A DNA stretch of 64,000 nucleotides from Bacteroidaceae bacterium (GCA_017556585.1 JAFYMP010000044.1:26463-90462); one strand, 5' to 3'. Counted from the stretch's first letter, positions 3,542-35,763 are shown. The notes: a model not told the origin generated them from the sequence alone. A program made the numbers and translations.

Positions 3542-4890
3542 TATTTCTTTATTCTTTCCAATATTGCCTTAGATTCAGCTTCGTAACCCGGCTTATTCAA
3601 CAGCGCAAACATATTCTTTTTGTAAGCCTCTACACCCGGCTGGTTAAATGGATTTACCTGTAGCATATATCCGCTTATACCGCAAGCCTTTTCAAAGAAA
3701 TAGATAAGTTGTCCTAACCAGTACTCTTTCAGTTCAGGTATTGTAATACGAATGTTAGGAACACCGCCATCTACGTGTGCAAGCTGTGTGCCTAATTCTG
3801 CCATCTTATTAACTTCGTCAACGTGTTTGCCTGCCAGGAAGTTCAAACCATCCAGATTCTCTTCGTCAGAAGGAACCAAAACAGAGTGCTGCACCTTATC
3901 TATAGAGAGTACTGTTTCAAAAATGGTACGTTCGCCCTCCTGAATCCACTGTCCCATAGAGTGCAGGTCTGTAGAGAAATCTACTGATGATGGGTATATA
4001 CCCTTATTATCTTTACCTTCTGATTCACCATACAGCTGTTTCCACCACTCTGCAAAGTAGTGTAACTTAGGCTGGAAATTCACCAGAATCTCTATCTTTT
4101 TACCTGTACGATACAGAGCGTTTCTGGCTGCTGCATATACGGCAGCAATATTATCGTTGAAAGCAACTTCTGATGAAGTCATCTTCTCCATATCGGCAGC
4201 GCCTTTTACCAATTCTGCTATATTGAAACCGGCAACGGCAATTGGTAGCAAACCTACAGGAGTAAGTACTGAATAACGTCCGCCTACATTGTCAGGAATA
4301 ACAAAGCTCTTGTAGCCCTCTTTATCGGCACAAACACGCGCTGCACCTTTATTTGCATCGGTAATAGCTACTATAACTTTCTTTGCCATCTCCTTACCAC
4401 GTTCGTCTTCACACTGTTTCTTTAGAAGACGAAATGCCAATGCAGTTTCTGTTGTAGTACCCGATTTTGATATATTGATTACACCAAAACGTTTTCCTGA
4501 AAGATACTGTGTAAGTTCAAACAGATAATCTTCACTGATATTGTGTCCGGCAAACAGAACAACAGGCTGATCTTTCTGTTGCAACAGATGTGCAAAGCTA
4601 TTGCTGAATGCCTCAATCACTGCTTTTGCACCTAAATAGCTGCCACCAATACCTGCTACAACCACTACATCGCAGTTCTCTTTCAACACTGCTGCAGTTG
4701 CATCAATTTCTGCAATAAATTCAGCACTGATAGAAGAAGCCAAGTTTACCCAACCTATGTAATCGTTGCCTAAACCTGTACCTTTTTCCAATTTTTCAAT
4801 AGCCTCTTTTGCTTCGGATTCCATGGCCTGCACTGCACCTGCAGGTATGAATCCCTGAATCTGTGAAATATCAACTTTAATCATACACAT
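3541..4890 (-). CDS. pgi: glucose-6-phosphate isomerase
   Basis: 449 aa. Motifs [21 protein letters not shown] and GGRYSVLT. The start could instead be the ATG 2 codons downstream. Confidence 0.95.
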
Positions 4891-4905: not shown

Positions 4906-5907
4906 TTATTTAAATGAATCTGTCAGTAATTTAATCTCTATTACCGGAGATATCTGGTCATAAAGTATATCGTATATTGCATTAAGTATAGGCATATTGA
5001 CACGATAGTGTTCATTTACCTCTTTCATACATTTTGTACCATAATATCCTTCTGCTATCATCTCCATCTCCAACTGAGCCGATTTTACAGAATAGCCCTT
5101 ACCTATCATTGTTCCAAACACTCTGTTTCTACTAAATTTGGAATAACCTGTAACCAACAAGTCTCCCAAATAGACTGAATCGTTAACAGCTCTGTTTGGC
5201 ATAGGTCTGGCCACTGCCAAAAAGTCGTTCATCTCTTGAATGGCATTCGACATAAGAACTGCCTGGAAATTATCGCCATACTTTAAGCCACTGCAAATAC
5301 CGGCAGCAATAGCATAGACATTCTTTAGTACAGAACTGAATTCAATACCTGCCACATCGGTGCTGACCGAAGTCTTAACGTAAGTATTGGTAAGTTTTTT
5401 GGCTATCATCTGGGCATTTTCAATATTCTGACAACCAACAGTAAGATAAGAGAGACGTTCCATTGCCACCTCTTCTGCATGACAAGGACCTGCTACTACC
5501 GATATATTTTCTACAGGAACTCCGTAATAGCGATGGAAATAATCTGACATAAGTAGATTATCGTCCGGAACAATTCCCTTTATGGCCGATACTACAAACT
5601 TGTCGCGTATCTTCACTTTAAGTTTCTTCATGTGAGACTTAAAGTAAGGCGACGGAGTTACAAAGACCAACACTTCTGAATCTTCTACCACTTTATTGAT
5701 ATCTGAATAGAAGTTTATGCGGTTGGTATCGAACTGCACAGTGGTAAGATACGCCGGATTATGCCCCAATCTTTTAAAGTCCTCAATTCTATCTTCTCTA
5801 CGAATGTACCAGTTGATAGAATCTTCTGTTGAGAGCAGAATCTTGGCTATGGCAGTTGCCCAACTGCCACCTCCCATTATTGCCAGTTTTCCTTGTGGAA
5901 TAGCCAT
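4906..5907 (-). CDS. gpsA: NAD(P)H-dependent glycerol-3-phosphate dehydrogenase
   Basis: 333 aa. N-terminal Rossmann motif MGGGSWATAIA; GpsA-like KGI, NVYAIAAG and GRN-like motifs. Confidence 0.9.
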   Translation of the reverse strand: MAIPQGKLAIMGGGSWATAIAKILLSTEDSINWYIRREDRIEDFKRLGHNPAYLTTVQFDTNRINFYSDINKVVEDSEVLVFVTPSPYFKSHMKKLKVKIRDKFVVSAIKGIVPDDNLLMSDYFHRYYGVPVENISVVAGPCHAEEVAMERLSYLTVGCQNIENAQMIAKKLTNTYVKTSVSTDVAGIEFSSVLKNVYAIAAGICSGLKYGDNFQAVLMSNAIQEMNDFLAVARPMPNRAVNDSVYLGDLLVTGYSKFSRNRVFGTMIGKGYSVKSAQLEMEMIAEGYYGTKCMKEVNEHYRVNMPILNAIYDILYDQISPVIEIKLLTDSFK

Positions 5908-5911
5908 ATAA

Positions 5912-7426
5912 TTAATCTTTTGTTTCAGGCTTCATTTGTGGGAAGAACAGCACCTCTTGAATAGCCTGCTGTCCTGTCAAAAGCATAGTAAGACGGTCTA
6001 TTCCTATACCAATACCACTGGTAGGAGGCATACCGTATTCAAGCGCACGTACAAAATCCTGATCTATAAACATAGCTTCGTCATCGCCCTTCTGGCTTAA
6101 ACGCAACTGTTCCTGGAAACGTTCGTACTGGTCTATAGGATCGTTCAATTCGCTATATGCATTTGCCAACTCCTTACCGTTTACCATAAGTTCAAAACGT
6201 TCTGTCAAACCCGGTTTACTGCGATGAGCCTTTGTTAGTGGTGACATCTCTACAGGATAGTCTATTATGAATGTAGGCTGTATGTATGTACCTTCGCAGA
6301 ATTCACCAAAGATTTCATCTATAAGTTTACCCTTACCCATGCTGGCATCCACATCCAGTTTAAGAGCCTTGCAAACTTCGCGAATTTCATCTTCCGATTT
6401 GCCTTCCAAATCGTATCCTGTCTTCTCTTTGATAGAATCCAATATAGAGATTCTCTTATATGGAGCCTTAAAGTTGATGGTGTTATCGCCTATCTTGGCT
6501 TCGTATGAACCATTAACCTCAAAACAGATTTTTTCCAATAGTTTTTCTGTGAAATCCATCATCCAGTTGTAGTCCTTGTACTGAACATAAAGTTCCATAC
6601 AGGTAAATTCCGGATTATGAGTTCTGTCCATACCTTCGTTACGGAAGTTCTTACCAATTTCGTAAACGCCTTCAAAACCACCTACTATAAGGCGTTTCAA
6701 ATACAATTCTGTTGCTATACGGCAATACAAATCTATATCCAGACTGTTATGATGTGTAATGAAAGGTCTTGCGCTTGCACCACCCGGTATAGACTGCAAA
6801 ATAGGAGTTTCTACCTCTGTGTAACCGGCACCATCCAATACTGAACGCATTGTTGAGATTATCTTTGAGCGTTTCAGGAAGGTCTCTTTTACACCTTCGT
6901 TCACTACCAAATCCACGTAGCGCTGACGATATCTTGAATCGGGATCGTCAAACTTATCGTATGCCACACCGTCTTTATATTTTACTATAGGCAGAGGACG
7001 AAGTGATTTAGCCAATACGGTTAGTTTCTGTGCATGAATGGTAATTTCTCCCATCTGTGTACGGAACACAAAGCCTTCAATGCCAATAAAATCGCCTATA
7101 TCAAGCAACTTTTTGAATACCTTATTATACATCTCTTTGTCTTCGCCCGGGCAAATATCATCGCGGGTTACATATATCTGGATACGTCCTTTTGAGTCCT
7201 GCAATTCTACAAACGATGCCTTACCCATAATGCGACGGCTCATCAATCTGCCGGCCACACACACCTTTCTTGGTTCATCTTCGTCTTTAAATTCTGCTTT
7301 TATATCTACCGAGAAGGCATTTGTTGGGTACATAGCAGCAGGATATGGGTCTATACCCATTGCGCGCAACTCTTTCAGGCTTTCACGTCTGTATTGTTCC
7401 TGATCGTTTAATTCAATGTTACTCAT
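5912..7426 (-). CDS. lysS: lysine--tRNA ligase (class II)
   Basis: Motifs [15 protein letters not shown] and GIGIGIDRL. The track ORF extends to 7528, but I place the start at the ATG at 7424-7426 ([15 protein letters not shown]). The TAACTTTG -7 box at 7495-7502 lies inside the longer ORF. Confidence 0.93.
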
Positions 7427-7494
7427 TTCTATTTCCAAATGATTGATAAAAAGTCTTTTTTGCCAAATAAAGCACAATTCGGCAATATCATTTG

Positions 7495-7502
7495 CAAAGT
7501 TA
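7495..7502 (-). promoter_or_regulatory. -7 promoter box for the lysS-gpsA-pgi-HAD operon
   Basis: The plus strand reads CAAAGTTA, which is TAACTTTG on the minus strand, 69 nt upstream of the lysS ATG at 7426. Confidence 0.45.
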
Positions 7503-7717
7503 GTTATTTTTAGTTTATCAACAGACAAAGTTTTCTATTTTTCCACCTTGTTTATATAACAATAATTGTCCTCATAGCGATATTTTTTAACAGACGTTAT
7601 CACCAATCCTTTCATTTATATAATATTCAGGTTTGTTCAACTCAATAAACTATTGTTATCGCGCACTAATAAAACACAAACTTTCAATAAATATTTCTTA
7701 CAGTAATTTGATTCACA

Positions 7718-7725
7718 TACATTTG
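7718..7725 (+). promoter_or_regulatory. -7 promoter box upstream of the CDP-alcohol phosphatidyltransferase operon
   Basis: TACATTTG lies 22 nt upstream of the ATG at 7748. Confidence 0.4.
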
Positions 7726-7747
7726 TCACAACAAAACAACAACGAAT

Positions 7748-8440
7748 ATGGAGAAACTTGCAACTGAAAAATCCGTAAGGATACAGACATCTGTACTAAG
7801 CAAAATAGAAAAGAGAGTACTAATTTGGTTGGCACAACGACAGCCAAGATGGGTAAATTCCGATATGATGACATTTTTAGGCACTGTAGGAGCACTGATA
7901 ATAGCCGCGGGGTATATTCTTTCTAATTTGAATATCAACTTTTTATGGATTGCATCATTGGGATTCATCATAAATTGGTACGGCGATTCGCTTGACGGTA
8001 CATTAGCAAGAATCAGACATTGCCAACGCCCAAATTATGGTTACTATTTAGACCATTCTATAGATGCTATAAACGAAATCTTTATGTTTATAGGCATAGG
8101 ATTATCGCCTTTTTTGGATATCAGATTAGCAATGGCAGGCTTAGTTATCTATTTTCTGCTAACCATAAATGTAAGCATAAATGCTCATCTGAAAGGTGAA
8201 TTCAGACTGACATACGCAAAGATGGGACCAACCGAACTGCGTATTATTATGATTATAATCAACACACTCATCATCTATTGGGAAGCATTACGTGAACAGA
8301 TGAATTTTATAGGTGGAATTTTAATACTATTACTGCTTATAACCTATATAGCCACAGTTGTAACAGATGCAAAGGGTTATGAAAAAATGGATAATGAAAT
8401 AAAAAACAAGAAAAAGAGCAATGCCACTCTTAACCCATAA
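7748..8440 (+). CDS. CDP-alcohol phosphatidyltransferase family protein
   Basis: 230 aa, multi-TM. Family signature DSLDGTLAR-x9-GYYLDHSIDA (D-x2-DG-x2-AR...G-x3-D-x3-D). Confidence 0.8.
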   Translation: MEKLATEKSVRIQTSVLSKIEKRVLIWLAQRQPRWVNSDMMTFLGTVGALIIAAGYILSNLNINFLWIASLGFIINWYGDSLDGTLARIRHCQRPNYGYYLDHSIDAINEIFMFIGIGLSPFLDIRLAMAGLVIYFLLTINVSINAHLKGEFRLTYAKMGPTELRIIMIIINTLIIYWEALREQMNFIGGILILLLLITYIATVVTDAKGYEKMDNEIKNKKKSNATLNP

Positions 8441-9239
8441 CGATTTAGAGAAAATTTCTCCACTGTTCAAAGGGAGATCCGGACATCTGCTTGCAGATAT
8501 CCTTATGAAACTGTTTGCTGTAGATAAAGTTTGCGCTCTATACAACAATAACGAACAATATTCAGGTGTAGATTTTGCACATCATATACTGCAAGATATT
8601 GGCGTTAATTACACTGTTTTGGGATCTGAAAGGCTGGAACAGCTCCCCAAAGGTGCATTTATCACAATAAGCAATCATCCATACGGAAGTATTGATGGAA
8701 TTATGCTTATAGATCTGATAGGCAAATATCGTCCGGAGTACAAAGTTTTAGTAAATCAGATATTAGGTCATATAGAACGGTTAGAGCCCAATTTTATTAA
8801 GGTAGTACCTACAGGAAAGCAGAAAGAGGGTGTAAAAAAAGAGAGTTTAAGAGGTATTATGCAGTCACTTAAACATCTGCAATCGGGCGCACCGTTAGGA
8901 TTGTTTCCGTCGGGAGCCGTATCTGATTTAAGCATAAAAGATGGTTGCATACGCGACAGAGAATGGCAACTTTCTGCCATTCAACTAATAAAGAAAGCAT
9001 GCGTTCCCATTGTCCCTATAAGATTCAGAGACAAAAATTCAATGTTTTACTATCTATTGGGGCTACTAAACTGGAAGATTAGGGTTACCAGGCTCCCTCG
9101 CGAAGTTTTTAACAAAAGAGACAAGATTACGCGCGTAGAGGTGTGCCCCATAATTACAGTGGAAGAACAAGACAAATACTCCAACATTGAAGAGTTCCGC
9201 AATTATTTACGTTCCACAATCTACCCTATCCCCAAGTAA
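8421..9239 (+). CDS. lysophospholipid/glycerolipid acyltransferase family protein
   Basis: 272 aa. NHPYGSIDG histidine/aspartate acyltransferase-like motif and FPSG motif. The ATG overlaps the upstream gene by 20 nt. Confidence 0.6.
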   Translation: MPLLTHNDLEKISPLFKGRSGHLLADILMKLFAVDKVCALYNNNEQYSGVDFAHHILQDIGVNYTVLGSERLEQLPKGAFITISNHPYGSIDGIMLIDLIGKYRPEYKVLVNQILGHIERLEPNFIKVVPTGKQKEGVKKESLRGIMQSLKHLQSGAPLGLFPSGAVSDLSIKDGCIRDREWQLSAIQLIKKACVPIVPIRFRDKNSMFYYLLGLLNWKIRVTRLPREVFNKRDKITRVEVCPIITVEEQDKYSNIEEFRNYLRSTIYPIPK

Positions 9240-9269
9240 GTTTGCAATTGGATTGCACATTAAAGTAAT

Positions 9270-9277
9270 TACTTTTG
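9270..9277 (+). promoter_or_regulatory. -7 promoter box upstream of the metal permease gene
   Basis: TACTTTTG lies 26 nt upstream of the ATG at 9304. Confidence 0.4.
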
Positions 9278-9303
9278 CAGCGACAAATATAATATGATAG
9301 TCT

Positions 9304-10554
9304 ATGCAAGAAATAATCGCTTTAATCAATGAAATGTCGCCATACCTTCTATTAGGTTTTTTATTGGCAGGTTTAATGCACTCTTTTATTCCAAACAGAT
9401 ATTATAGAACTTATTTGGGAGGCAATTCGTTTCGTTCGGTTCTGTATGCCACACTATTTGGTATTCCGCTGCCACTATGTTCATGCGGGGTTATTCCCAC
9501 TGCAATGTCTTTACGTAAAGAAGGAGCGTCAAAGGGAGCTACTACAGCATTTCTGATAGCCACACCGCAAACGGGGGTTGATTCTATAATTGCGACCTAT
9601 TCTCTAATGGGACTGCCTTTTGCACTTGTACGCCCCATTGCCGCTCTATGCACTGCGCTTTTTGGTGGTTGTTTGGCAAATATCTTCAGCAAAAAAGAGA
9701 TAGAAACACCCATACAGAACATAGAAGAACAAAGCCACAAAGAGGAGAAACAGAACTTTATACAGAAGATTATCTCTGCATTTCGCTATGGTTTTGTAGA
9801 TATGATGCAGGATATAGGCAGATGGTTGGTTTTAGGTTTGATAATTGCAGGTCTTATAACAGTATTTGTACCTGAATCTTTCTTTGCATTGTTTGCACAC
9901 AATTCATTACTCAGTATGCTGATAGTTCTGCTATTTGCCATACCTATGTACCTGTGCGCAACCGGTTCCATTCCCATTGCAGTTGCACTGATGTTAAAAG
10001 GATTGTCACCGGGAACAGCTTTGGTTCTACTTATGGCAGGACCTGCAGCCAATATGGCATCTATTTTGGTCATTAATAAAGTTTTAGGCAAACGTAATCT
10101 TATTATTTATCTTTTTTCAATTATATCAGGAGCCATATTATTTGGTTTGGGAATAGACTACCTTTTGCCAAGAGAATGGTTCACTACAGGATTATCTGTA
10201 ATACAGGAATCGTGCCACAACCACACCAACGGATGGAGTGAATATATCTGGACAATAATATTGTCTATTCTTCTTATCAATGCATTATTATTAAGATATT
10301 GCAAAAAAGAGAAACATTGTCACTGTAACAGTTGCGAAACTACTAAACAAAAAGAAGAGAATATGACTATTACTATTCAAGGAATGAACTGCAACCACTG
10401 TAAGAACAGTGCCGAAAAGGCTCTTTTGAGTGTTGAGGGTGTAGAAAAAGTGGAGATAGATTTAGCATCGGGAACAACCATTATTACAGGAAAGGCAACT
10501 ATTGAAGATGTAAAAAATGCAATCTACTCTATAGGTTTTACCATAAAAGAGTAA
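9304..10554 (+). CDS. ArsP/SO_0444-like metal permease fused to a C-terminal heavy-metal-associated (HMA) domain
   Basis: 416 aa, polytopic. Permease motif LPLCSCGVIP, a His/Cys linker (CHNHTNGW, KHCHCNSC), then an HMA fold with GMNCNHC. Confidence 0.75.
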   Translation: MQEIIALINEMSPYLLLGFLLAGLMHSFIPNRYYRTYLGGNSFRSVLYATLFGIPLPLCSCGVIPTAMSLRKEGASKGATTAFLIATPQTGVDSIIATYSLMGLPFALVRPIAALCTALFGGCLANIFSKKEIETPIQNIEEQSHKEEKQNFIQKIISAFRYGFVDMMQDIGRWLVLGLIIAGLITVFVPESFFALFAHNSLLSMLIVLLFAIPMYLCATGSIPIAVALMLKGLSPGTALVLLMAGPAANMASILVINKVLGKRNLIIYLFSIISGAILFGLGIDYLLPREWFTTGLSVIQESCHNHTNGWSEYIWTIILSILLINALLLRYCKKEKHCHCNSCETTKQKEENMTITIQGMNCNHCKNSAEKALLSVEGVEKVEIDLASGTTIITGKATIEDVKNAIYSIGFTIKE

Positions 10555-10719
10555 AAGACTGTTTACAGAGATACAGCACCGGAACAAAAGTGCGCTCAAA
10601 CTGTAACATCAAAGAAGAATGTACAACCATACAGTGTTTACTTAAAGTTTTAAAGGCATTTAGAATCGATTAGTACAAATAGGGGTATAGTAATAACAAG
10701 ATTGTAGAAAAAATATTCT

Positions 10720-10727
10720 TAACTTTG
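10720..10727 (+). promoter_or_regulatory. -7 promoter box upstream of tRNA-Arg
   Basis: TAACTTTG ends 16 nt before the tRNA 5' end. Confidence 0.45.
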
Positions 10728-10743
10728 CGCATAATTATAAAGC

Positions 10744-10817
10744 GGCCCCGTAGCTCAGCTGAATAGAGCGTCAGATTCCGGTTCTGCAGGTCTTGGGTTT
10801 GAATCCCAACGGGGTCA
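10744..10817 (+). tRNA. tRNA-Arg (anticodon CCG)
   Basis: Hand-folded 74-nt cloverleaf. Acceptor GGCCCCG/CGGGGTC (one G-U), D stem GCTC/GAGC, anticodon loop TTCCGGT (U33, CCG, G37), T stem TTGGG/CCCAA, discriminator A. CCA is not encoded. Confidence 0.9.
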
Positions 10818-10866
10818 CTATGGTTAAACTAAGACAATAATTGTCCTATAAAATAGATAGAATAGA

Positions 10867-11904
10867 ATGAGTTACCTAATTGTACCAAAGAACTACAAAC
10901 AGTTGCTCACAATGAGACAGACTGAGCAAGGTATTAAACTTATTAAAGAGTTCTTCCAGCAAAACCTATCCACAGGTTTGCAGCTTCGCCGTGTTACCGC
11001 ACCTTTATTTGTGTTAAAAGGTATGGGTATAAACGACGATTTAAGTGGTAAAGAACGCGCTGTAACATTCCCTATTAAAGATTTAGGCGATGCGAAAGCA
11101 GAAGTTGTACACTCTTTGGCAAAATGGAAACGTTTAACCCTGGCTGAATATGACATCAAGCCCGGATATGGTATTTACACCGATATGAATGCCATACGTT
11201 CCGATGAAAGTTTAGGCAATCTACACTCTCTTTATGTTGACCAATGGGACTGGGAACGCACCATAACAGCAGAAGACAGAAACATTGATTTCCTGAAACG
11301 CATTGTTAGAAAAATCTATTCTGCAATGTTAAGAACAGAATATCTCATAAACGAAACATATCCGCAGTTAGAGCCATTCCTGGCACGCGAAGTATTCTTT
11401 ATTCACTCTGAGGAGCTAAGAAGATTATACCCTGATATGAGTGCAAAGGAGCGTGAAGATGCTATAACAAAAGAACATGGTACTGTATTCATAATGGGCA
11501 TAGGCGGTAATTTAGAAGACGGCAAACCACACGATTTGCGTGCCCCTGACTATGACGATTGGACCACACCAAATAGCGATGGTTTCTGTGGCTTAAACGG
11601 AGACCTGCTTGTTTGGAACTCTATTCTGGACCGTTCTATTGAATTGTCATCAATGGGAATAAGAGTAGATAAAAAAGCATTACTACACCAATTGGAACTA
11701 ACAGGACAAGAGGATCGCAAAGAGCTATATTTCCACAAAAAGTTACTGAATGGAGAACTACCGTTATGTATAGGTGGCGGTATAGGTCAGTCCAGACTGT
11801 GTATGCTCTTCTTGCAAAAAGCCCACATTGGAGAGATTCAGGCAAGTATTTGGCCGGAAGATCAGATTGCCGAGTGTAAAAAAGCAGGAATTGAACTTAT
11901 ATAA
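10867..11904 (+). CDS. asnA: aspartate--ammonia ligase (asparagine synthetase A)
   Basis: 345 aa. AsnA-like throughout ([23 protein letters not shown]). Confidence 0.93.
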
Positions 11905-11909
11905 TATCT

Positions 11910-12572
11910 ATGAAGGTAAAGATTGAAGAGAGTTGGGAGAAGGTTTTGCAGCCCGATTTTGAGAAGCCTTATTTTAAGGAACTGACAGATTTTGTCAGGT
12001 CTGAATATGCTACCACTACCATATACCCACCCGCTTCACTTATCTTCAATGCTTTCAATCTATGTCCGTTTGACAAAGTAAAAGTGGTAATAATAGGGCA
12101 AGATCCTTACCATGGTCCCGGGCAGGCGCACGGTTTATGTTTCTCTGTGAATGACGGCATTCAGTTCCCCCCATCGTTACAAAACATATTCAAGGAGATA
12201 AAATCAGATTTGGACATACCCATACCCACAAGCGGGAATCTTACAAGATGGGCAGAACAGGGCGTTCTACTTTTGAATGCTACACTTACTGTAAGAGCCC
12301 ACAATGCAGGTTCACACCAGAAAAAGGGATGGGAGACATTTACAGATTCTGTAATAAGAATTTTAGCAGAACAGAAAGAGAATTTAGTCTTTATTCTATG
12401 GGGAGCATACGCACAGAAGAAGGGAGCATTTATAGATAAAAATCGTCATCTGGTACTCTCATCTGCACATCCATCGCCACTATCGGCATACAATGGTTTT
12501 TTTGGCAACCATCACTTCAGTCTGACCAACAAATGGCTGACCGAACATAATCTAAAGGCTATAGATTGGTAA
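11910..12572 (+). CDS. ung: uracil-DNA glycosylase
   Basis: 220 aa. Catalytic motif [18 protein letters not shown] and HPSPLS. Confidence 0.95.
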
Positions 12573-27222: not shown

Positions 27223-28623
27223 ATGTCAAATAGTGAACTAAATACAAAATGGAACAGTTGTCTTGAGTTTATACAAGATAACGTAGAGCCTATGGTTTGT
27301 GAAACCTGGTTCACTATACTCAAACCTGTAAGTTTAGATAATAACACCTTACTTATAGAAGCTCCAAGTTCTTTTGTTTGTGAATTTATTGAGGAGAACT
27401 ACCTGAATGAATTCCAGGCAGCTGTTTGCAAATATTTTGGTAACCAGATTACTGTAGATTACAAAATAATTGTTGATAAGACAAATTCACAAAGCACTAC
27501 TGTACGTTCACAGGAATTTCAGCCTGCAATCATTAAGAACCAGAAGCCATTAAGCAACACTGCCCCTTCTGCTACAGATGCACCGCAGGTACAGGATTTG
27601 GATTCCATGCTGAACACAAAGTACAGTTTCAGCAATTTCATTGAGGGTTACAGCAACAAAATGGCAAGAATAGCCGGTGAGACTATTGCTCAGAATCCCG
27701 GAAGCACCTCTTTTAACCCACTTTTCATACATGGTTCATCCGGTGTAGGTAAAACTCACCTTCTGAATGCTATTGGTATGAAAGTAAAAGAGCTGCACCC
27801 AGACAAAAGAGTACTATACGTGTCTTCACATCTGTTCCATATACAGTATATAGATGCTATAAGAAGCAACAATATCAACGATTTCATTCACTTCTATCAA
27901 ACTATAGATGTACTTATCATAGACGATATGCAAGAATTGTCTGGCTTTCCTAAGACCACAAATACATTCTTCCATATATTTAATCACCTGCATCAAAACC
28001 GCAAGCAGTTGATTATGTCTTGTGACAGACACCCTAAAGATTTAAAAGATATTGAAGAGAGAATGATTACCAGATTCAAATGGGGACTGGTTACTGAATT
28101 AGAAAAACCGGATCTTAAGTTAAGAAAAGACATTCTAAGAGACAAAACTTCAAGAGATGGATTGGTTGTAAACGACGAAGTTATAGATTATGCTGCAGAA
28201 AACATCACAGGCAGCGTAAGAGACTTAGAAGGCTTTATAGCTTCACTTATGGCCCACTCTACTTTCTACAATAAGGAGATAAATTTAGAACTCACACAGG
28301 ATATTCTAAACAAGAACAGCAAGAAAGAAGAAAAGCCTATCACCATTGAATCAATCATAAATACAGTTTGTGATTATTACGATGTTGATATTGATGCCAT
28401 TCAAACCAAATCCAGAAAACATGAAGTGGTTCAGGTAAGACAAATCAGCATGTATTTGGCAAAAAAACATCTGGACTTCTCAACATCAAAAATTGGTGCT
28501 TACATAGGCAAAAGAGACCACGCCACAGTTTTGCATGCTTGCAATATGGTAAAAGACCAGTTACAAGTTGACAAAAACTTTAGAAAAGATATGGAAAATA
28601 TTGAGAGTTCTCTTAAGTCTTAA
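27223..28623 (+). CDS. dnaA: chromosomal replication initiator protein DnaA
   Basis: 466 aa. Walker A GSSGVGKTHL, Walker B LIIDDMQ, and the domain IV DNA-binding helix RDHATVLHACNMV. Confidence 0.97.
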   Translation: MSNSELNTKWNSCLEFIQDNVEPMVCETWFTILKPVSLDNNTLLIEAPSSFVCEFIEENYLNEFQAAVCKYFGNQITVDYKIIVDKTNSQSTTVRSQEFQPAIIKNQKPLSNTAPSATDAPQVQDLDSMLNTKYSFSNFIEGYSNKMARIAGETIAQNPGSTSFNPLFIHGSSGVGKTHLLNAIGMKVKELHPDKRVLYVSSHLFHIQYIDAIRSNNINDFIHFYQTIDVLIIDDMQELSGFPKTTNTFFHIFNHLHQNRKQLIMSCDRHPKDLKDIEERMITRFKWGLVTELEKPDLKLRKDILRDKTSRDGLVVNDEVIDYAAENITGSVRDLEGFIASLMAHSTFYNKEINLELTQDILNKNSKKEEKPITIESIINTVCDYYDVDIDAIQTKSRKHEVVQVRQISMYLAKKHLDFSTSKIGAYIGKRDHATVLHACNMVKDQLQVDKNFRKDMENIESSLKS

Positions 28624-32030: not shown

Positions 32031-33380
32031 TTAGAATGTAAAGTCGAGTGACAAACCGAATGCTTCGCTCTTACGTGTATAGTTACAAGCTGTACTGTTT
32101 GCATTTGTAAATTCTCTGCCATCAAACATTGAGTGCAGATAACCTGCATTCAGCTTAAGCATATCGTTAATTTTATATGCAGCACCAAAGCTCAGTCCGT
32201 ATGAACTTGTGCTAAAGTTTGTATCTGACATATCTGAATCGGCAAAGCCAAGACCTGTACGCTGACCACCGCAGCTGATTGTCCATCTATCAGTGATATC
32301 CCATTCTGCACCTAATACAACTTCCCAGCTGTTATCGCCAGCCTTGATAGCAGAACCTTTGGCATCTTTATCCCAGAAATAGTGATAACCAGCAGCAACG
32401 CGAACTTCCGAGAATGAATATTCTGCGCCAAGTGCCAAATATGCAGGTATGTCTGTACGTACTATGTTACCATCGCCATAAACAGCTACAGCTGGAACTG
32501 TTGTTGCAAGAGCAGCAAGATTTGCGCTATTGTTTGCTTCGTTTTCCATAGCAATCTTTGTACGGAATTCATATTTAGCAGCCAAATTCAAGTCACCGAG
32601 TTTAACATCTACACCTAATATTGGAGTAAAGCCAAAATCGCTCTGAGTACAGTCAAGTTTATAATCTGAAAGAAGTGCGGCATACTGTGCCATTCCCGGC
32701 ATAAGCTGGAAAACAGGTGATGATGCTGTAATACCACCTATATTGATATTGCTGATAGAGCCCACATACGATGCTTTTGCCATAACTGTACGCAAACCAC
32801 CAAAAACAGATACCATATCTGCAATTTTATAAGTACCACCTACCTGAAGACCAAAGAAATACTGCTTTCCGGTAAGATTCTGGTCCAATGAATATGCGTT
32901 TGAACCTATCATGCTACCAAACTGATATGCCATACCTCCAATCAGTTCTTCAAACATAGGCAGACCATTTGCAAATTCGCAAGCTCCACCACCGCCGCCT
33001 ACTGCAAACTGAGCAGATACTGACCATTTATCATTAAAAACGTATGCAGCCTGGAATGAAGGGATAACAGGTGCAAATGTTTCACCTTCAAATAAACGAT
33101 CTTTAGACTGATTTTCTGTATTAAACATAAACAGAGGATTTGAAACATTCATCTGACGTTTCTGAGCAGCTGCCTGCCAGCTTAATGAAAGATGAAAACC
33201 TTCCGGCATAAAAGCTACACCTGCAGGGTTGCTATACACACCATCAATAGCAATTGCTGCATCGCGAGCAGGATTACGCAAATAAGTTGCATTCTGATTT
33301 GTATTTGTCAAAAGACCACCTGCAAAAGATGTTGCAGAAACCAAAAGTGCCATAGCACCAATAAAGAAATTCTTTTTCAT
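32031..33380 (-). CDS. outer-membrane transport protein, OMPP1/FadL/TodX family
   Basis: 449 aa. Signal peptide, a conserved GGLLTNTNQNATYLRNPARDA hatch-like N-terminus, amphipathic beta-strand pattern, and a terminal F. Confidence 0.78.
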   Translation of the reverse strand: MKKNFFIGAMALLVSATSFAGGLLTNTNQNATYLRNPARDAAIAIDGVYSNPAGVAFMPEGFHLSLSWQAAAQKRQMNVSNPLFMFNTENQSKDRLFEGETFAPVIPSFQAAYVFNDKWSVSAQFAVGGGGGACEFANGLPMFEELIGGMAYQFGSMIGSNAYSLDQNLTGKQYFFGLQVGGTYKIADMVSVFGGLRTVMAKASYVGSISNINIGGITASSPVFQLMPGMAQYAALLSDYKLDCTQSDFGFTPILGVDVKLGDLNLAAKYEFRTKIAMENEANNSANLAALATTVPAVAVYGDGNIVRTDIPAYLALGAEYSFSEVRVAAGYHYFWDKDAKGSAIKAGDNSWEVVLGAEWDITDRWTISCGGQRTGLGFADSDMSDTNFSTSSYGLSFGAAYKINDMLKLNAGYLHSMFDGREFTNANSTACNYTRKSEAFGLSLDFTF

Positions 33381-33409
33381 TTTGATAAAAATTTGGTTAA
33401 TTCTGGCTG

Positions 33410-33417
33410 CAAATATA
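33410..33417 (-). promoter_or_regulatory. -7 promoter box for the FadL-like gene and folB
   Basis: The plus strand reads CAAATATA, which is TATATTTG on the minus strand, 30 nt upstream of the ATG at 33380. Confidence 0.4.
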
Positions 33418-33484
33418 GTACATAAAACTATTCGTTATCCCCAAAATGCACACATTCGCAAATATTGTATAAAAAGAGCCGCTA

Positions 33485-33542
33485 TAGTAATAGGGTTAGG
33501 TTTGCTGGCATTGCCACCCTGCCCAAGTAAGTAGTGGAAACT
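33485..33542 (+). repeat. 58-nt direct repeat, copy A (solo copy of the left arm of the 33737-34004 element)
   Basis: Matches 33738-33795 at 55 of 58 positions: TAGTAATAGGGTTA(G/A)GTTTGC(T/G)GGCAT(T/A)GCCACCCTGCCCAAGTAAGTAGTGGAAACT. Confidence 0.9.
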
Positions 33543-33575
33543 TAATGACGTTACTGTAAGCTCGTAGTTAAAATA

Positions 33576-33607
33576 TTTGGAATTCCTTCAAAAAGGCATT
33601 ACTTTTG
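33576..33607 (+). promoter_or_regulatory. orphan -33/-7 promoter inside the ORF-free region
   Basis: TTTG at 33576-33579 and TACTTTTG at 33600-33607, with a 20-nt spacer. This matches the geometry of the other candidate promoters in the window. No CDS follows. Confidence 0.4.
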
Positions 33608-33613
33608 TACCAC

Positions 33614-33704
33614 CTTTGGTATGATTAGTTCATCATAACTATATGATAATGAGCCTCCCAGGCGAGCCGCAAGGCAGCATACTTGGGAGGCGTTCTTAAT
33701 TTTA
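33614..33704 (+). ncRNA. candidate ~90-nt small RNA (orphan promoter to terminator-like hairpin)
   Basis: Bounded by the promoter above and a hairpin GCCTCCCAGG / ACTTGGGAGGC (33653-33691). That hairpin has an inner GCC-GCAA-GGC GNRA-capped stem and is followed by GTTCTTAATTTT. Only trivial ORFs (18 aa or less) lie inside. The 5' end is inferred. Confidence 0.3.
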
Positions 33705-33736
33705 GGCGAGACTCAATATAATACTATCCACACAGA

Positions 33737-34004
33737 GTAGTAATAGGGTTAAGTTTGCGGGCATAGCCACCCTGCCCAAGTAAGTAGTGGAAACTGAGGG
33801 ACTATCTGTGAGGAGCGGAATAGCGCAGTGAGCCGGAAGAACGTTAAAAAACGGCGGTGTCTGAGGTACGTTAGACAGCGAATGCTGGCTAAAAGACCGA
33901 GTTCGCCGTTTTAGTTCTGTAGGTGAACGAAGCAGCTACGAACAGCTTGTCCTGAAGTTCCACTATAAACAAACGGAACCATAGCAAACTTAACCCTATT
34001 CTAC
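33737..34004 (+). other. ~270-nt nested rod-like imperfect palindrome (structured ncRNA or MITE-like element)
   Basis: Hand-paired nested helices. S1 is 33737-33758 with 33984-34004 (21 bp, 1 bulge). S2 is 33785-33802 with 33949-33965 (16 bp plus a tandem G-A/A-G). Next come CTGT/ACAG, then S3 at 33838-33856 with 33904-33918, then the S4 hairpin TGTCT/AGACA at 33858-33877. Confidence 0.5.
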
Positions 34005-34090
34005 GAACAACACAGCTACTGCACGAAACTCCACTAAACACTACTATAGTTTTTTAAAGATAAAACACACTACTTCAAACAAAAAAACAT

Positions 34091-34098
34091 TAACTTTG
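34091..34098 (+). promoter_or_regulatory. -7 promoter box for the O-antigen-ligase-like gene
   Basis: TAACTTTG lies 30 nt upstream of the ATG at 34129. It overlaps the TTG start used by the track ORF, which argues for the ATG start. Confidence 0.45.
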
Positions 34099-34128
34099 CA
34101 TCACAGAAAATTTAAACACACAGTTACT

Positions 34129-35763
34129 ATGAAAAGACTTTTAATCAAACTCAATGCAGTAGATTTACTTGCATCCACACTATTCCTGGTGTTTATCATC
34201 ACTTGGTTTAACAATCAAACAGAGGTAGCATTTCACAAAATGTATAGTATTGCTATATATGTTTTACCATACATTGTATTCAGATACATAGCATCAAAAG
34301 AATACTATTACTTTTGGAAAAGAATTATACTTATTATTCTTTCAGCCTGTGCAATCTGGCAATCCATATATGCCATTCTTCAAGTTATCGGTATTTGCGA
34401 ATCACACAATTTCATGTTCACCATAACAGGTTCTTTTCATAACCCGGGACCATTTGGCGGGTTTCTTGCAATATGCGCCAGTTTGTTTATACCCAGCATT
34501 CAAGAAGAGGCATACCGTTTTCTAAGAACTTTATACTACGTAGCCACCATATTTTGTATTATACTTTTACCGGCCACATTAAGCAGAACAGCTTTGTTGG
34601 CATTTGGAACAAGTATGCTGATATATGCCTTATCGTTTCAATATTTTAGAGATACAATAAAACGATACTGGATAATAGCAGTTGTGGGAATATCTCTATT
34701 GGGTGTTAGTGCTTATCTGTATAAAAAGGATTCTGCCAACGGCAGATTCTACATAAACAAGATTAGTGCCATAGCCATGAGAGATAATGGCTTTAAGGGT
34801 AGCGGATTAGGAAAATTCAGTACAACATACGGAGAAACGCAAGCTAATTACTTTGCGCCATATATAGATAATATAATAGAAGGTGACGCACCGGAAAAGA
34901 TTGAACAAGAACGGATGATTGCCGATTGCCCCGAATATGCCTTTAATGAATATATGGAGATAGGTGTGGAATGTGGCATAATAGGTATAGTAGCATTCAT
35001 TGTGCTTACCCTTACTGCCATTTGGATTCTATATAAAACAAAATCTATATGGTGCTACGGTCTAATTACACTTTCAATATTTGCACTGTTTTCATATCCT
35101 TTTAAAATGGCTGTGTTCTGCATTTTTGAAGGTTTATTTATTGCCATGGCTGGAATAAAGGCAAATAAAGGTATTAAAACTTATGCTCCTATACATATAA
35201 CAGCAATCCTGGCTATAACTTTTATTATAGCTGGATTCAGCAGAATCAGTTCTTCTAAAAAGGCAGAAAAGTTGTTAGAAAAATCTATTACCTTATACGA
35301 TATTAAATACTACGAAGCATTTGTAGAGGATTGTTATTCTTTAACCAAAGAGTTAACCCACAACTATAATTTTTTGTTTGCTTTAGGACAATCACTCAAC
35401 AAGTGTGGTGATTATAACAAAAGCGATTCTATTCTTATCTTGGGCAGTTCCATTAGTTGCGATCCTATGTTTTGGAATATAATGGGCAATAATGCCATAG
35501 CACAGGGAAATTATGAACGTGCAAAAGAGTGTTACACAAAAGCTTTCTGTATGATTCCAAACAGATTATATCCTCTCTCACTTTTGGCTAAGATGTATCA
35601 CGAAAACGGCGACACATCTGCCCTCCTCCACTTAAGCAATGCAATAAATAGTTTTACACCAAAAGTAGAGTCTGAACTCACCAAAGAGCTGAGAGAGGAG
35701 ATAAATTTAATTATTCATGAATCTTATTTACAAAAGCCCGCTCCAACTCCTGCGAGATATTGA
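34129..35763 (+). CDS. O-antigen ligase (Wzy_C)-like polytopic membrane protein with C-terminal TPR region
   Basis: About 12 hydrophobic helices, including the SRTALLAF-containing loop typical of WaaL/Wzy_C proteins. The C-terminal ~150 aa are TPR-like (NYERAKECYTKAFCMIPN). Confidence 0.65.
   Translation: MKRLLIKLNAVDLLASTLFLVFIITWFNNQTEVAFHKMYSIAIYVLPYIVFRYIASKEYYYFWKRIILIILSACAIWQSIYAILQVIGICESHNFMFTITGSFHNPGPFGGFLAICASLFIPSIQEEAYRFLRTLYYVATIFCIILLPATLSRTALLAFGTSMLIYALSFQYFRDTIKRYWIIAVVGISLLGVSAYLYKKDSANGRFYINKISAIAMRDNGFKGSGLGKFSTTYGETQANYFAPYIDNIIEGDAPEKIEQERMIADCPEYAFNEYMEIGVECGIIGIVAFIVLTLTAIWILYKTKSIWCYGLITLSIFALFSYPFKMAVFCIFEGLFIAMAGIKANKGIKTYAPIHITAILAITFIIAGFSRISSSKKAEKLLEKSITLYDIKYYEAFVEDCYSLTKELTHNYNFLFALGQSLNKCGDYNKSDSILILGSSISCDPMFWNIMGNNAIAQGNYERAKECYTKAFCMIPNRLYPLSLLAKMYHENGDTSALLHLSNAINSFTPKVESELTKELREEINLIIHESYLQKPAPTPARY

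Follow-up and report, generated by a model that had tools for sequence, protein, structure and literature searches.

A long imperfect palindrome in a polymorphic repeat cluster upstream of a Wzy_C-type gene of Bacteroidaceae may be unstable DNA rather than an RNA gene

Introduction

A DNA segment that is predicted to fold into a long rod can be read as an RNA gene, as a mobile element or as the outcome of the way in which the DNA was duplicated, and the question of which of these applies is raised by an intergenic region in a 64-kb stretch of DNA from a Bacteroidaceae bacterium (the whole of this stretch is referred to here as the window). The region, at 33381-34128, is flanked by diverging genes, with a FadL/OMPP1-type outer-membrane protein gene (32031-33380, minus strand) on its 5' side and a Wzy_C + TPR 'O-antigen-ligase-like' gene (plus strand, ATG at 34129) on its 3' side. 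This ORF-free gap of 750 bp was confirmed to be the largest in the window between ORFs of at least 120 aa. The neighbourhood is ordinary chromosomal DNA, with dnaA at 27223-28623, followed by ribonucleotide reductase and folB.

The original prediction placed a rod-like imperfect palindrome of approximately 270 nt at 33737-34004 in this gap. It was proposed that the palindrome could be a structured non-coding RNA, either a 6S-like rod or a switch for the ligase-like gene, or a palindromic repeat of the MITE/ERIC type, and that a second, solo copy of its left arm could compete with the first for one right arm. Here, the palindrome (hereafter the rod) and its surroundings were compared with homologous loci from related genomes.

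Results

The palindrome and its fold

The palindrome was found at 33737-34004 (268 bases) as predicted, and was highly significant. Aligned as a palindrome, its two halves scored 34, compared with -17.8 +/- 9 for shuffles, and the plus strand folded at -107 kcal/mol (z -7.44; 0/200 shuffles as good), while the minus strand folded at -89.9 kcal/mol (z -4.77). Most of the helices that had been proposed were recovered. S1 is a perfect 17-bp inverted repeat (33742-33758 with 33984-34000), which in the minimum free energy structure (MFE) reaches 21 bp with one bulged T; S2 (33785-33799 with 33951-33965) is 80% complementary and contains the tandem G-A/A-G; and S3, in which AAAACGGCG pairs with CGCCGTTTT, belongs to the MFE. 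The proposed terminal hairpin S4, TGTCT-N10-AGACA, was not used in the MFE, the apex of which closes on UUAGACAGC-GAAU-GCUGGCUAA. A further hairpin, GGGCA-N9-TGCCC, has its 5 bp in the window only, G33759 being a T in most relatives.

The left part of the rod alone (33762-33916) folded no better than shuffles (z -0.48), so that the exceptional energy of the rod comes from the inverted duplication. It had been argued that the G-U pairs are valid on the plus strand only; there are indeed 4 on that strand, but the minus strand still has 2, and the choice of strand from this count was rejected as not decisive. The plus-strand fold was 10-17 kcal/mol more stable than the minus-strand fold in three lineages. 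When folds were compared between loci, the window was the least well paired, at -105.6 kcal/mol versus -110.4 and -111.5 kcal/mol for the other two, L005 and L041.

Parts of the repeat cluster

The rod belongs to a cluster built from a unit of approximately 70-100 nt, which consists of a 21-nt arm, a variable head and a TAGTGGAA(A)CT..GGAC box. The arm is defined as (T/G)AATAGGGTTAAGTTTGC plus 4 outer bases. The left arm of the rod (L2, 33737-33758, plus orientation) forms the left strand of S1 and contains TAAGTTTG, which resembles a -7 box, at 33750-33757. It is followed by the head (33759-33802) and the 22-nt d_left (33803-33824), which include a small hairpin (33759-33777) and the left strand of S2 (33785-33802) and which, in some strains, are repeated in tandem together with the arm with a period of 102 nt. 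The 110-nt core (33825-33934) forms the apex with S3 and the terminal hairpin, and resembles a two-way terminator in that a GC stem is flanked by A6 to the left and T4 to the right. The fast-changing d_right (33935-33983) contains the right strand of S2 (33949-33965) and leads into the R arm (33984-34004, minus orientation), an inverted copy of the arm that provides the right strand of S1 and in which TAAGTTTG reads from 33992 to 33985. In L032, L033, L036, L049 and L050, d_right and the right arm occur in tandem with a 71-nt period. The sequence after the R arm (34005-34060) resembles, by eye, a diverged extra d_right unit (CGAACA...CCACTA...).

The solo copy, L1 (33485-33549, plus orientation), consists of an arm and head. 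It is paralogous to, and in tandem with, the left end of the rod, with 91% identity over 65 nt to 33738-33802. The earlier observations on it held: within its first 58 nt (33485-33542), 55/58 positions are identical to the start of the rod, and its arm, including the A-to-G difference, can still pair with the right arm, to which it is 94% complementary. The L1 arm contains TAGGTTTG at 33497-33504. L1 is followed by a segment called post29 (33542-33569, plus orientation), which weakly resembles 33796-33824 by eye. Between the two left-arm copies lies a spacer of 188 nt, the foreign part of which is a 'module' at 33570-33706 (plus orientation), and a junction sequence at 33707-33736, ending in CACAGAG, precedes L2.

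Both flanking genes appear to have their promoters outside this cluster. The promoter and leader of the FadL-like gene lie at 33381-33471 (minus strand), with a -7 box, TATATTTG, reading from 33417 to 33410 on the minus strand, and this stretch is kept at 97-100% in all relatives, including the cluster-free L006. The -7 box of the Wzy_C/TPR gene, TAACTTTG (34091-34098, plus strand), is downstream of the rod and outside it, and is conserved together with the leader in the rod-free L006 and L028.

Architecture among relatives

Approximately 25 homologous loci were recovered by exact look-ups, by homologue searches with both flanking proteins and by one DNA scan; all were from closely related metagenome assemblies of uncultured Bacteroidales/Bacteroidaceae. 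Their architectures differed widely. The rod stands alone in L041, L042 and L044, with one left arm, head, d_left, core, d_right and one right arm in a 488-nt gap, and L049 and L050 have a single left arm and two right arms 71 nt apart. The window and L005 have, in addition to the rod, the upstream copy of arm and head with the 188-nt spacer. L027 has a left arm and interior but no right arm, and its upstream copy is a more diverged relative of L1 (approximately 60% identical by eye), without the module or spacer but followed by post29 (a query with this copy matched 33532-33567 in the window). Two tandem left units with a 102-nt period, without a right arm, were found in L045 and L046, and three in L047, the contig of which stops within the interior of the short unit described below. 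Where the right arm is missing (L027, L045 and L046), the interior is still approximately 96-99% identical.

The core can be missing as well. In L023, L031 and L039, which have no core, a left unit cut at 33824 is followed by a short unit in complete form. This short unit is 134 nt long and shares its arms with the rod; its 92-nt interior, made of three hairpins, is unrelated; it also takes the place of the core in L033. A second right unit in tandem was seen in L032, L033 and L036. The long interior, the short interior and the spacer showed no mutual homology above that of shuffles.

Two more distant relatives, L006 and L028-30, have no element whatever: in L006, an epimerase gene lies 90 nt before the outer-membrane protein gene, with the Wzy_C gene oppositely oriented, and in L028-30 the distance from folB to the Wzy_C gene is 191 nt. 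Many short-read contigs end inside the repeat cluster. In L043, 23S/5S rRNA genes (an rRNA operon) are joined at 33966, and the assemblies of L043 and L003 may be chimeric; in L003 the join would be in the module, a sequence that is present at other loci as well.

The solo left-arm copy is missing in five loci (L041, L042, L044, L049 and L050), each of which has a single left arm. Therefore, competition of two left arms for one right arm is not a conserved mechanism; instead of a regulatory competitor, the solo copy represents a paralogue of the unit in tandem.

Conservation within the rod

Four full-length rods were available for comparison (window, L005, L041 and L049). Among these, the only strongly conserved part was 33742-33923, with 6 variable columns in 182 nt, and 33833-33924 was invariant in the four lineages. 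There were 9 variable columns in the 60 nt of 33924-33983, and 15/22 of all variable columns fell in the right half. The changes in the right half turn mismatches into pairs or vice versa, while the left side is unchanged, and no two-sided compensatory change was found in the long rod in the four sequences. Pairing in L005 and L041 is improved by A33938C and by GA-to-TC. In L005, the latter change is a 4-nt flip (TGAA to TTCA, in the context TGAA/TTCCA), of the kind that would be expected from quasi-palindrome template switching.

In the short unit, there was one true compensatory change, from A-U to C-G in a hairpin, which was seen in 2/4 full sequences and matched in partial ones; this could also be produced by a single template-switch event. 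Three one-sided changes remain paired, as G-U, on the plus strand only. Among lineages, 33742-33923 was 97-100% identical, compared with 67-99% for the neighbouring coding DNA (150-nt windows), and the identity profile against L005 was a mosaic. The high identity of 33742-33923 indicates either constraint or recent exchange, which a pure by-product fails to explain. The compensatory change in the short unit, the G-U changes on the plus strand and the greater stability of that strand also count against regarding the fold as a by-product.

The arms also carry a promoter-like motif. TAnnTTTG is the documented -7 consensus of Bacteroidetes (PMC7366714). It occurs 6 times in the 750-bp gap, with three sites in arms and three at plausible promoters, whereas its frequency in the window is 0.75 per kb per strand. 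Every arm carries this -7 box as TAAGTTTG or TAGGTTTG, and none of the arm variants in relatives touches its six specified bases, which also speaks against a mere by-product. No consensus promoter outside the arms that would be able to transcribe the whole rod was found on either strand.

The foreign module

The module between L1 and L2 corresponds to the 3' flank of an Abi_2 gene in a type I restriction-modification (R-M)/Abi island. Homologues were found directly after the Abi_2 stop codon at the same locus in L031 (820-955), after the Abi_2 stop codon in L025 (5301-5445), and, again after the Abi_2 stop codon, inside an intact hsdR-hsdM-hsdS-Abi_2-hsdS'-recombinase (tyrosine recombinase) locus in L052 (10952-11112). 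In L025, perfect 56-bp inverted repeats enclose Abi_2 and the module beside a recombinase gene, and these repeats include CTTGCCAGAAGGGTGG, which by reading encodes an hsdS-type LPEGW motif. L003 is otherwise near-identical to the window, and diverges at 33707 into a gene for a 268-aa tyrosine recombinase of a family that was also found next to hsdS genes in L024, L025 and L052; L023 lacks 33704-33714. In L033, HipA (of a HipBA pair) directly adjoins an arm. The segment at 33570-33706 is therefore what is left, in decayed form, of a defence island with type I R-M and Abi_2 genes. Searches by tblastx and six-frame translation found no similarity in the gap to a hidden coding remnant of hsdS, of the neighbouring genes or of the island genes.

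The module is a candidate gene for an RNA of approximately 90 nt, with a full promoter of the Bacteroidetes type (TTTG-N20-TACTTTTG, 33576-33607), a hairpin (33653-33693) and a T run (33700-33703). No arm-like sequence was found on the island in its native loci, L052 and L025. The possibility that L1 and L2 represent the attL and attR sites left by an island with its own att copy was considered, and is weakened by the intact island of L052, which lacks the arm, and by tandem arms with no foreign DNA between them.

Searches for known families and for other copies

In agreement with the original prediction, which had found no likeness to RNase P, tmRNA, SRP or cobalamin riboswitches, the Rfam scan was negative in the element. 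The sole match at gathering thresholds in the whole window was a tRNA at 10744-10817; for 33350-34160, at E up to 10, only chance matches (E > 2) were obtained, none of them in the rod, and L023, L031, L033 and L043 gave nothing in the element. ARAGORN found no tRNA-like or tmRNA-like gene in five loci.

The arm was found only at this locus across all loci compared. No other copy, even a diverged one, was detected with nhmmer (E up to 10) in the 64-kb window or in unrelated loci, and a 20-mer from the head was present in one contig among 241 million metagenome records, which was this same locus. The description of a single locus is provisional, as the sequence behind it comes from one metagenome scan, the 64-kb window and a few flanks. 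Phage and plasmid collections contained no BLASTN match to the gap, nor did plasmids contain one to the short unit, and four scans of viral contigs with patterns from the arm, head, core and short unit gave chance 17-mer matches or none. There was no target-site duplication, with the rod flanked by ACACAGA and GAACAAC in the window and by GAGTTACT and GAACAGCT in L041, which has the rod only.

Two other identities were tried and rejected. The core sites of integron attC are 5'-RYYYAAC ... GTTRRRY-3', in that order; the GTTAAGT and ACTTAAC of the arms are in the reverse order, with GTTRRRY first, and there is no integron integrase in the window. For a replication origin, TTATCCACA (at most 1 mismatch) had 23 matches in the window compared with 22 expected, two of them in the gap, and there was neither a skew switch nor an enrichment of DnaA boxes in the window.

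Discussion

The gap contains a repeat cluster that is polymorphic among close relatives, with no other copies in the sequence examined. The explanation that we prefer, to which we would give about an even chance of being correct, is that the rod is a long imperfect DNA palindrome that is unstable, and not a gene dedicated to a rod-shaped RNA. The rod would have arisen when a unit of approximately 70-100 nt, specific to this intergenic region in one Bacteroidaceae lineage, was duplicated in inverted and tandem orientation, and in it the left unit opposes inverted right units across the 110-nt core. The RNA-like fold would be a consequence of this duplication history and not a selected structure, and the fold of the whole rod, as such, is probably without a function. 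Slippage, template switching and breakage readily occur in long palindromes. A palindrome at this locus could therefore gain and lose arm copies, swap its interior and take up foreign DNA at unit boundaries. Among the relatives, the rod is one state of a hypervariable cluster. We infer that the instability of the palindrome, and not a dedicated recombinase, is the driver of these changes. The conserved segment at 33742-33923 may nevertheless be functional.

One option of the original prediction is a regulatory RNA of approximately 270 nt, either 6S-like or a leader switch of the Wzy_C gene, with competition between the solo and main left arms. Its great stability (z -7.4), the advantage of the plus strand in three lineages, the few substitutions compatible with plus-strand G-U pairing and the better pairing of L005 and L041 than of the window would all suit such an RNA. 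However, Rfam gave no match, the 6S families included, and many close relatives lack the right arm or the core. The substitutions in the right half are uncompensated, the solo copy is missing in five loci, and no promoter lies upstream of the rod, the Wzy_C gene having its own -7 box downstream of it. The structured RNA of the original prediction is thus unsupported, and we regard it as extremely unlikely. It is also possible, though doubtful, that the plus strand encodes a small RNA in the conserved left part only. The arm would then supply a sigma-ABfr -7 box (TAAGTTTG, 33750-33757), and transcription may start near 33763 and stop at the S3 stem and UUUU (approximately 33913), giving an RNA of approximately 150 nt; the right half would be a decaying or convergent inverted paralogue, the promoter of the right arm would give an antisense-overlapping RNA of approximately 135 nt that ends at the minus-strand T6 run, and extra left arms would be duplicated promoter and 5' modules. 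This is consistent with the agreement of the arm motif with the documented consensus (PMC7366714), with its enrichment in the gap and its unchanged specified bases, with the limits of the conserved block, which begins at the arm and ends just past the T run, and with the terminator-like A and T runs around the GC stem of the core. Against it, the -7 box of the arm has no -33 TTTG at the right distance, and S3 was not called by the terminator scan because its loop is approximately 50 nt. L023, L031 and L039 lack the core and have an interior without an obvious terminator, no terminator is present within the 102-nt tandem units, and there is no Rfam relative. As the profile of identity against L005 is mosaic, recent recombination may also account for the high identity. 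In its fullest form, this idea would make 33742-33923 an undescribed Bacteroidaceae small-RNA gene, with a promoter/5' module copied in tandem and in inverted orientation, giving convergent, partly complementary RNAs (or a long hairpin RNA from the upstream arm), and with a 5' end that serves as the landing site of defence islands; this seems unlikely.

The other half of the original prediction, the palindromic repeat, is nearer to the truth than the structured RNA, although it is correct in part only: repeat units make up the cluster, with arms that behave like terminal inverted repeats, but in the sequence examined it is not dispersed, and it has no target-site duplication. A non-autonomous mobile element, either a MITE or the ends of an internally deleted transposon with 21-bp terminal inverted repeats, long (268-bp) and short (134-bp) forms and nested copies, would account for identical 21-bp inverted termini around unrelated interiors, for the small size and lack of an ORF, and for the high identity across lineages, as after recent spread. 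It would also account for the position of the short form after a truncated left unit of the long form in L023/L031/L039 and before a tandem right unit in L032/L033, and the presence of several arms per end would recall Tn7- or Mu-type ends, in which transposase-binding sites are repeated. Such an element should leave target-site duplications, which are missing in the window and in L041, and should have copies elsewhere, whereas none was found in the window or in unrelated loci, the only metagenome contig with the 20-mer among 241 million records was this locus, and viral contigs, phages and plasmids gave no matches. No transposase gene is nearby, and the spacers between tandem arms are homologous, which points to segmental duplication and not to an array of binding sites. 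We consider a mobile element distinctly unlikely. The arms could instead be the sites of a site-specific recombinase, in which case the region would be either an inverton or shufflon that switches orientation in front of the Wzy_C gene or the attachment site of a defence island that leaves direct repeats. In a Bacteroidales genome the geometry is that of an inverton: the inverted repeats measure 17-21 bp, are separated by 225 bp and lie 125 nt upstream of a gene of the surface-polysaccharide type. Compared with the 'rod only' state, the window has an insertion of 253 nt between direct repeats of 58-65 nt, other strains have cargo at the arm boundaries (Abi_2, recombinase, HipA), and TTAAGTTTGC in the arm resembles GTANNTTTGC, which we take to be the core target of the CTnDOT integrase. 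This is very unlikely all the same, as no inverted state was seen; every arm kept the same inner neighbour in approximately 20 assemblies, with no hybrid junction, and no TAnnTTTG occurs on either strand between 33759 and 33983. The only recombinase seen belongs to the 268-aa family, whose members in type I R-M loci are neighbours of inverted copies of hsdS, and the island in its native loci (L052 and L025) has no arm. Tandem arm copies also occur without intervening foreign DNA, and the duplicated length varies among insertions, reaching approximately 33802 in one and approximately 33824 in others.

If the rod is an unstable palindrome, it illustrates that a very strong predicted RNA fold (z < -7) can stem purely from duplication history. 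Comparison with approximately 25 sister loci was sufficient to reveal the rod as a transient state of an unstable repeat cluster. On the present evidence, we regard the element as a local curiosity that does not define a new class. Should the small-RNA reading be true, the locus would encode a lineage-specific small RNA, the gene of which would be a hot spot for defence-gene insertion in an RNA gene other than a tRNA, and this would be relevant to genome plasticity and phage defence in rumen and gut Bacteroidales.

Each of the known systems that the locus recalls shares some of its features. The 6S and rod-like RNAs have the same predicted shape, an extended rod with internal loops, but the rod is approximately 90 nt longer than a typical 6S RNA, has no covariance-model match, and its structure is not kept among close relatives. 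Elements of the MITE, ERIC and Correia type are likewise small and non-coding, with terminal inverted repeats and a predicted long hairpin if transcribed, and, like the rod and the short unit, can come in two size classes with the same termini. Unlike these, the cluster is undispersed in the sequence examined, with no target-site duplication or cognate transposase, and its copies are tandem or inverted at a single locus.

The invertons of Bacteroidales have the same inverted-repeat length, spacing and position upstream of a surface-glycan gene, but the rod has no internal promoter, no flipped orientation in the assemblies and no linked invertase in the window, and its interior is itself palindromic. 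Islands at att sites in RNA genes (tRNA/tmRNA) are similar to L1/L2 in having a 58-65-nt direct repeat around foreign DNA, an empty state in sister strains (one copy and no module in L041/42/44/49/50) and a cargo of defence and toxin-antitoxin genes. They differ in that the target here is no recognised RNA gene by ARAGORN or Rfam, no island-type integrase was seen, and the same island occurs elsewhere without a matching att.

The long quasi-palindromes of bacteria are similar to the rod in being inverted duplications of more than 100 nt per arm, and in the loss of arms, the tandem gain of arms, small flips that perfect or spoil the pairing, and the many short-read contigs that break off within it. 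In those palindromes, SbcCD-type cleavage, slippage and template switching are known, and a comparable mechanism may act on the rod. The rod is set apart from them by its segment 33742-33923, which is conserved well beyond what would be expected of junk, and by unit boundaries that repeatedly host foreign defence genes.

Gene neighbourhood and structure of the rod locus

For gene order, positions 784-4000 of L006, a contig from a sister species, were compared with window positions 33381-35763. In L006 the Wzy_C gene is reversed relative to the OMP gene when compared with the window, and a GlcNAc-2-epimerase gene separates the two. In the window, the Wzy_C gene shares 53 nt (35711-35763) with the 3' end of the Na/Pi-cotransporter gene, which converges on it. 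An identical Wzy_C protein is encoded in L031-L040, contigs from relatives, yet downstream of it lies the Na/Pi cotransporter gene in some contigs and a Lactamase_B/flavodoxin gene in others, and the upstream neighbours vary too; the Wzy_C gene has therefore been rearranged on both sides among strains.

In a further contig, L043 (positions 1-485), the 3' end of a 23S rRNA gene and a 5S rRNA gene, both Rfam matches, adjoin the rod where the right arm would be expected, to the right of position 33966 in window orientation, with inverted partial 5S fragments close by. A faint likeness to a 5S fragment was also seen at window 34016-34030 (CTACTGCACGAAAC). The sole Rfam match within the window was a tRNA gene at 10744-10817, which has no relation to the rod.

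The short unit, a 134-nt element sharing the arms of the rod, was aligned from L023, L031, L033 and L039. Its hairpin, GC(A/C)GGAAC-TT-GTTCC(T/G)GC, contains a compensatory change from A-U to C-G (alignment A6, columns 89/102), and the left arm of L033 has lost a T opposite the site of an A-to-G change in the paired right arm.

The Abi_2-linked module

Between the two left-arm copies lies a module of ~137 nt (window 33570-33706), also present at L025:5301-5445, L031:820-955 and L052:10952-11112. It carries a full Bacteroidetes promoter, TTTG-N20-TACTTTTG (window 33576-33607), a hairpin with a 10-bp stem (33653-33693) and a T run. In L025, L031 and L052 the module is always preceded by an Abi_2 gene within type I R-M loci, and in the window it persists without this gene. 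The module could encode a small RNA of ~90 nt with a link to Abi_2.

Up to a junction at window-equivalent 33706/33707, the contig L003 (2-643) has almost the same sequence as the window, with a single mismatch over 507 nt, and from 33707 it changes to the 3' end of a gene for a 268-aa tyrosine recombinase. It represents either a strain that has retained an island at the rod locus or an assembly chimera formed via the shared module. The recombinase family is conserved at >80% identity across Bacteroidales genera.

In L025, perfect 56-bp inverted repeats (3700-3755 and 5904-5959) flank Abi_2 and the module, ~40 nt upstream of the 268-aa tyrosine recombinase gene; reading by eye, we found an hsdS-type LPEGW-coding sequence within them. 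The corresponding type I R-M/Abi_2 region of L052 lies at 7316-12529. The arrangement in both contigs resembles a phase-variable type I R-M system whose invertible segment holds an Abi gene.
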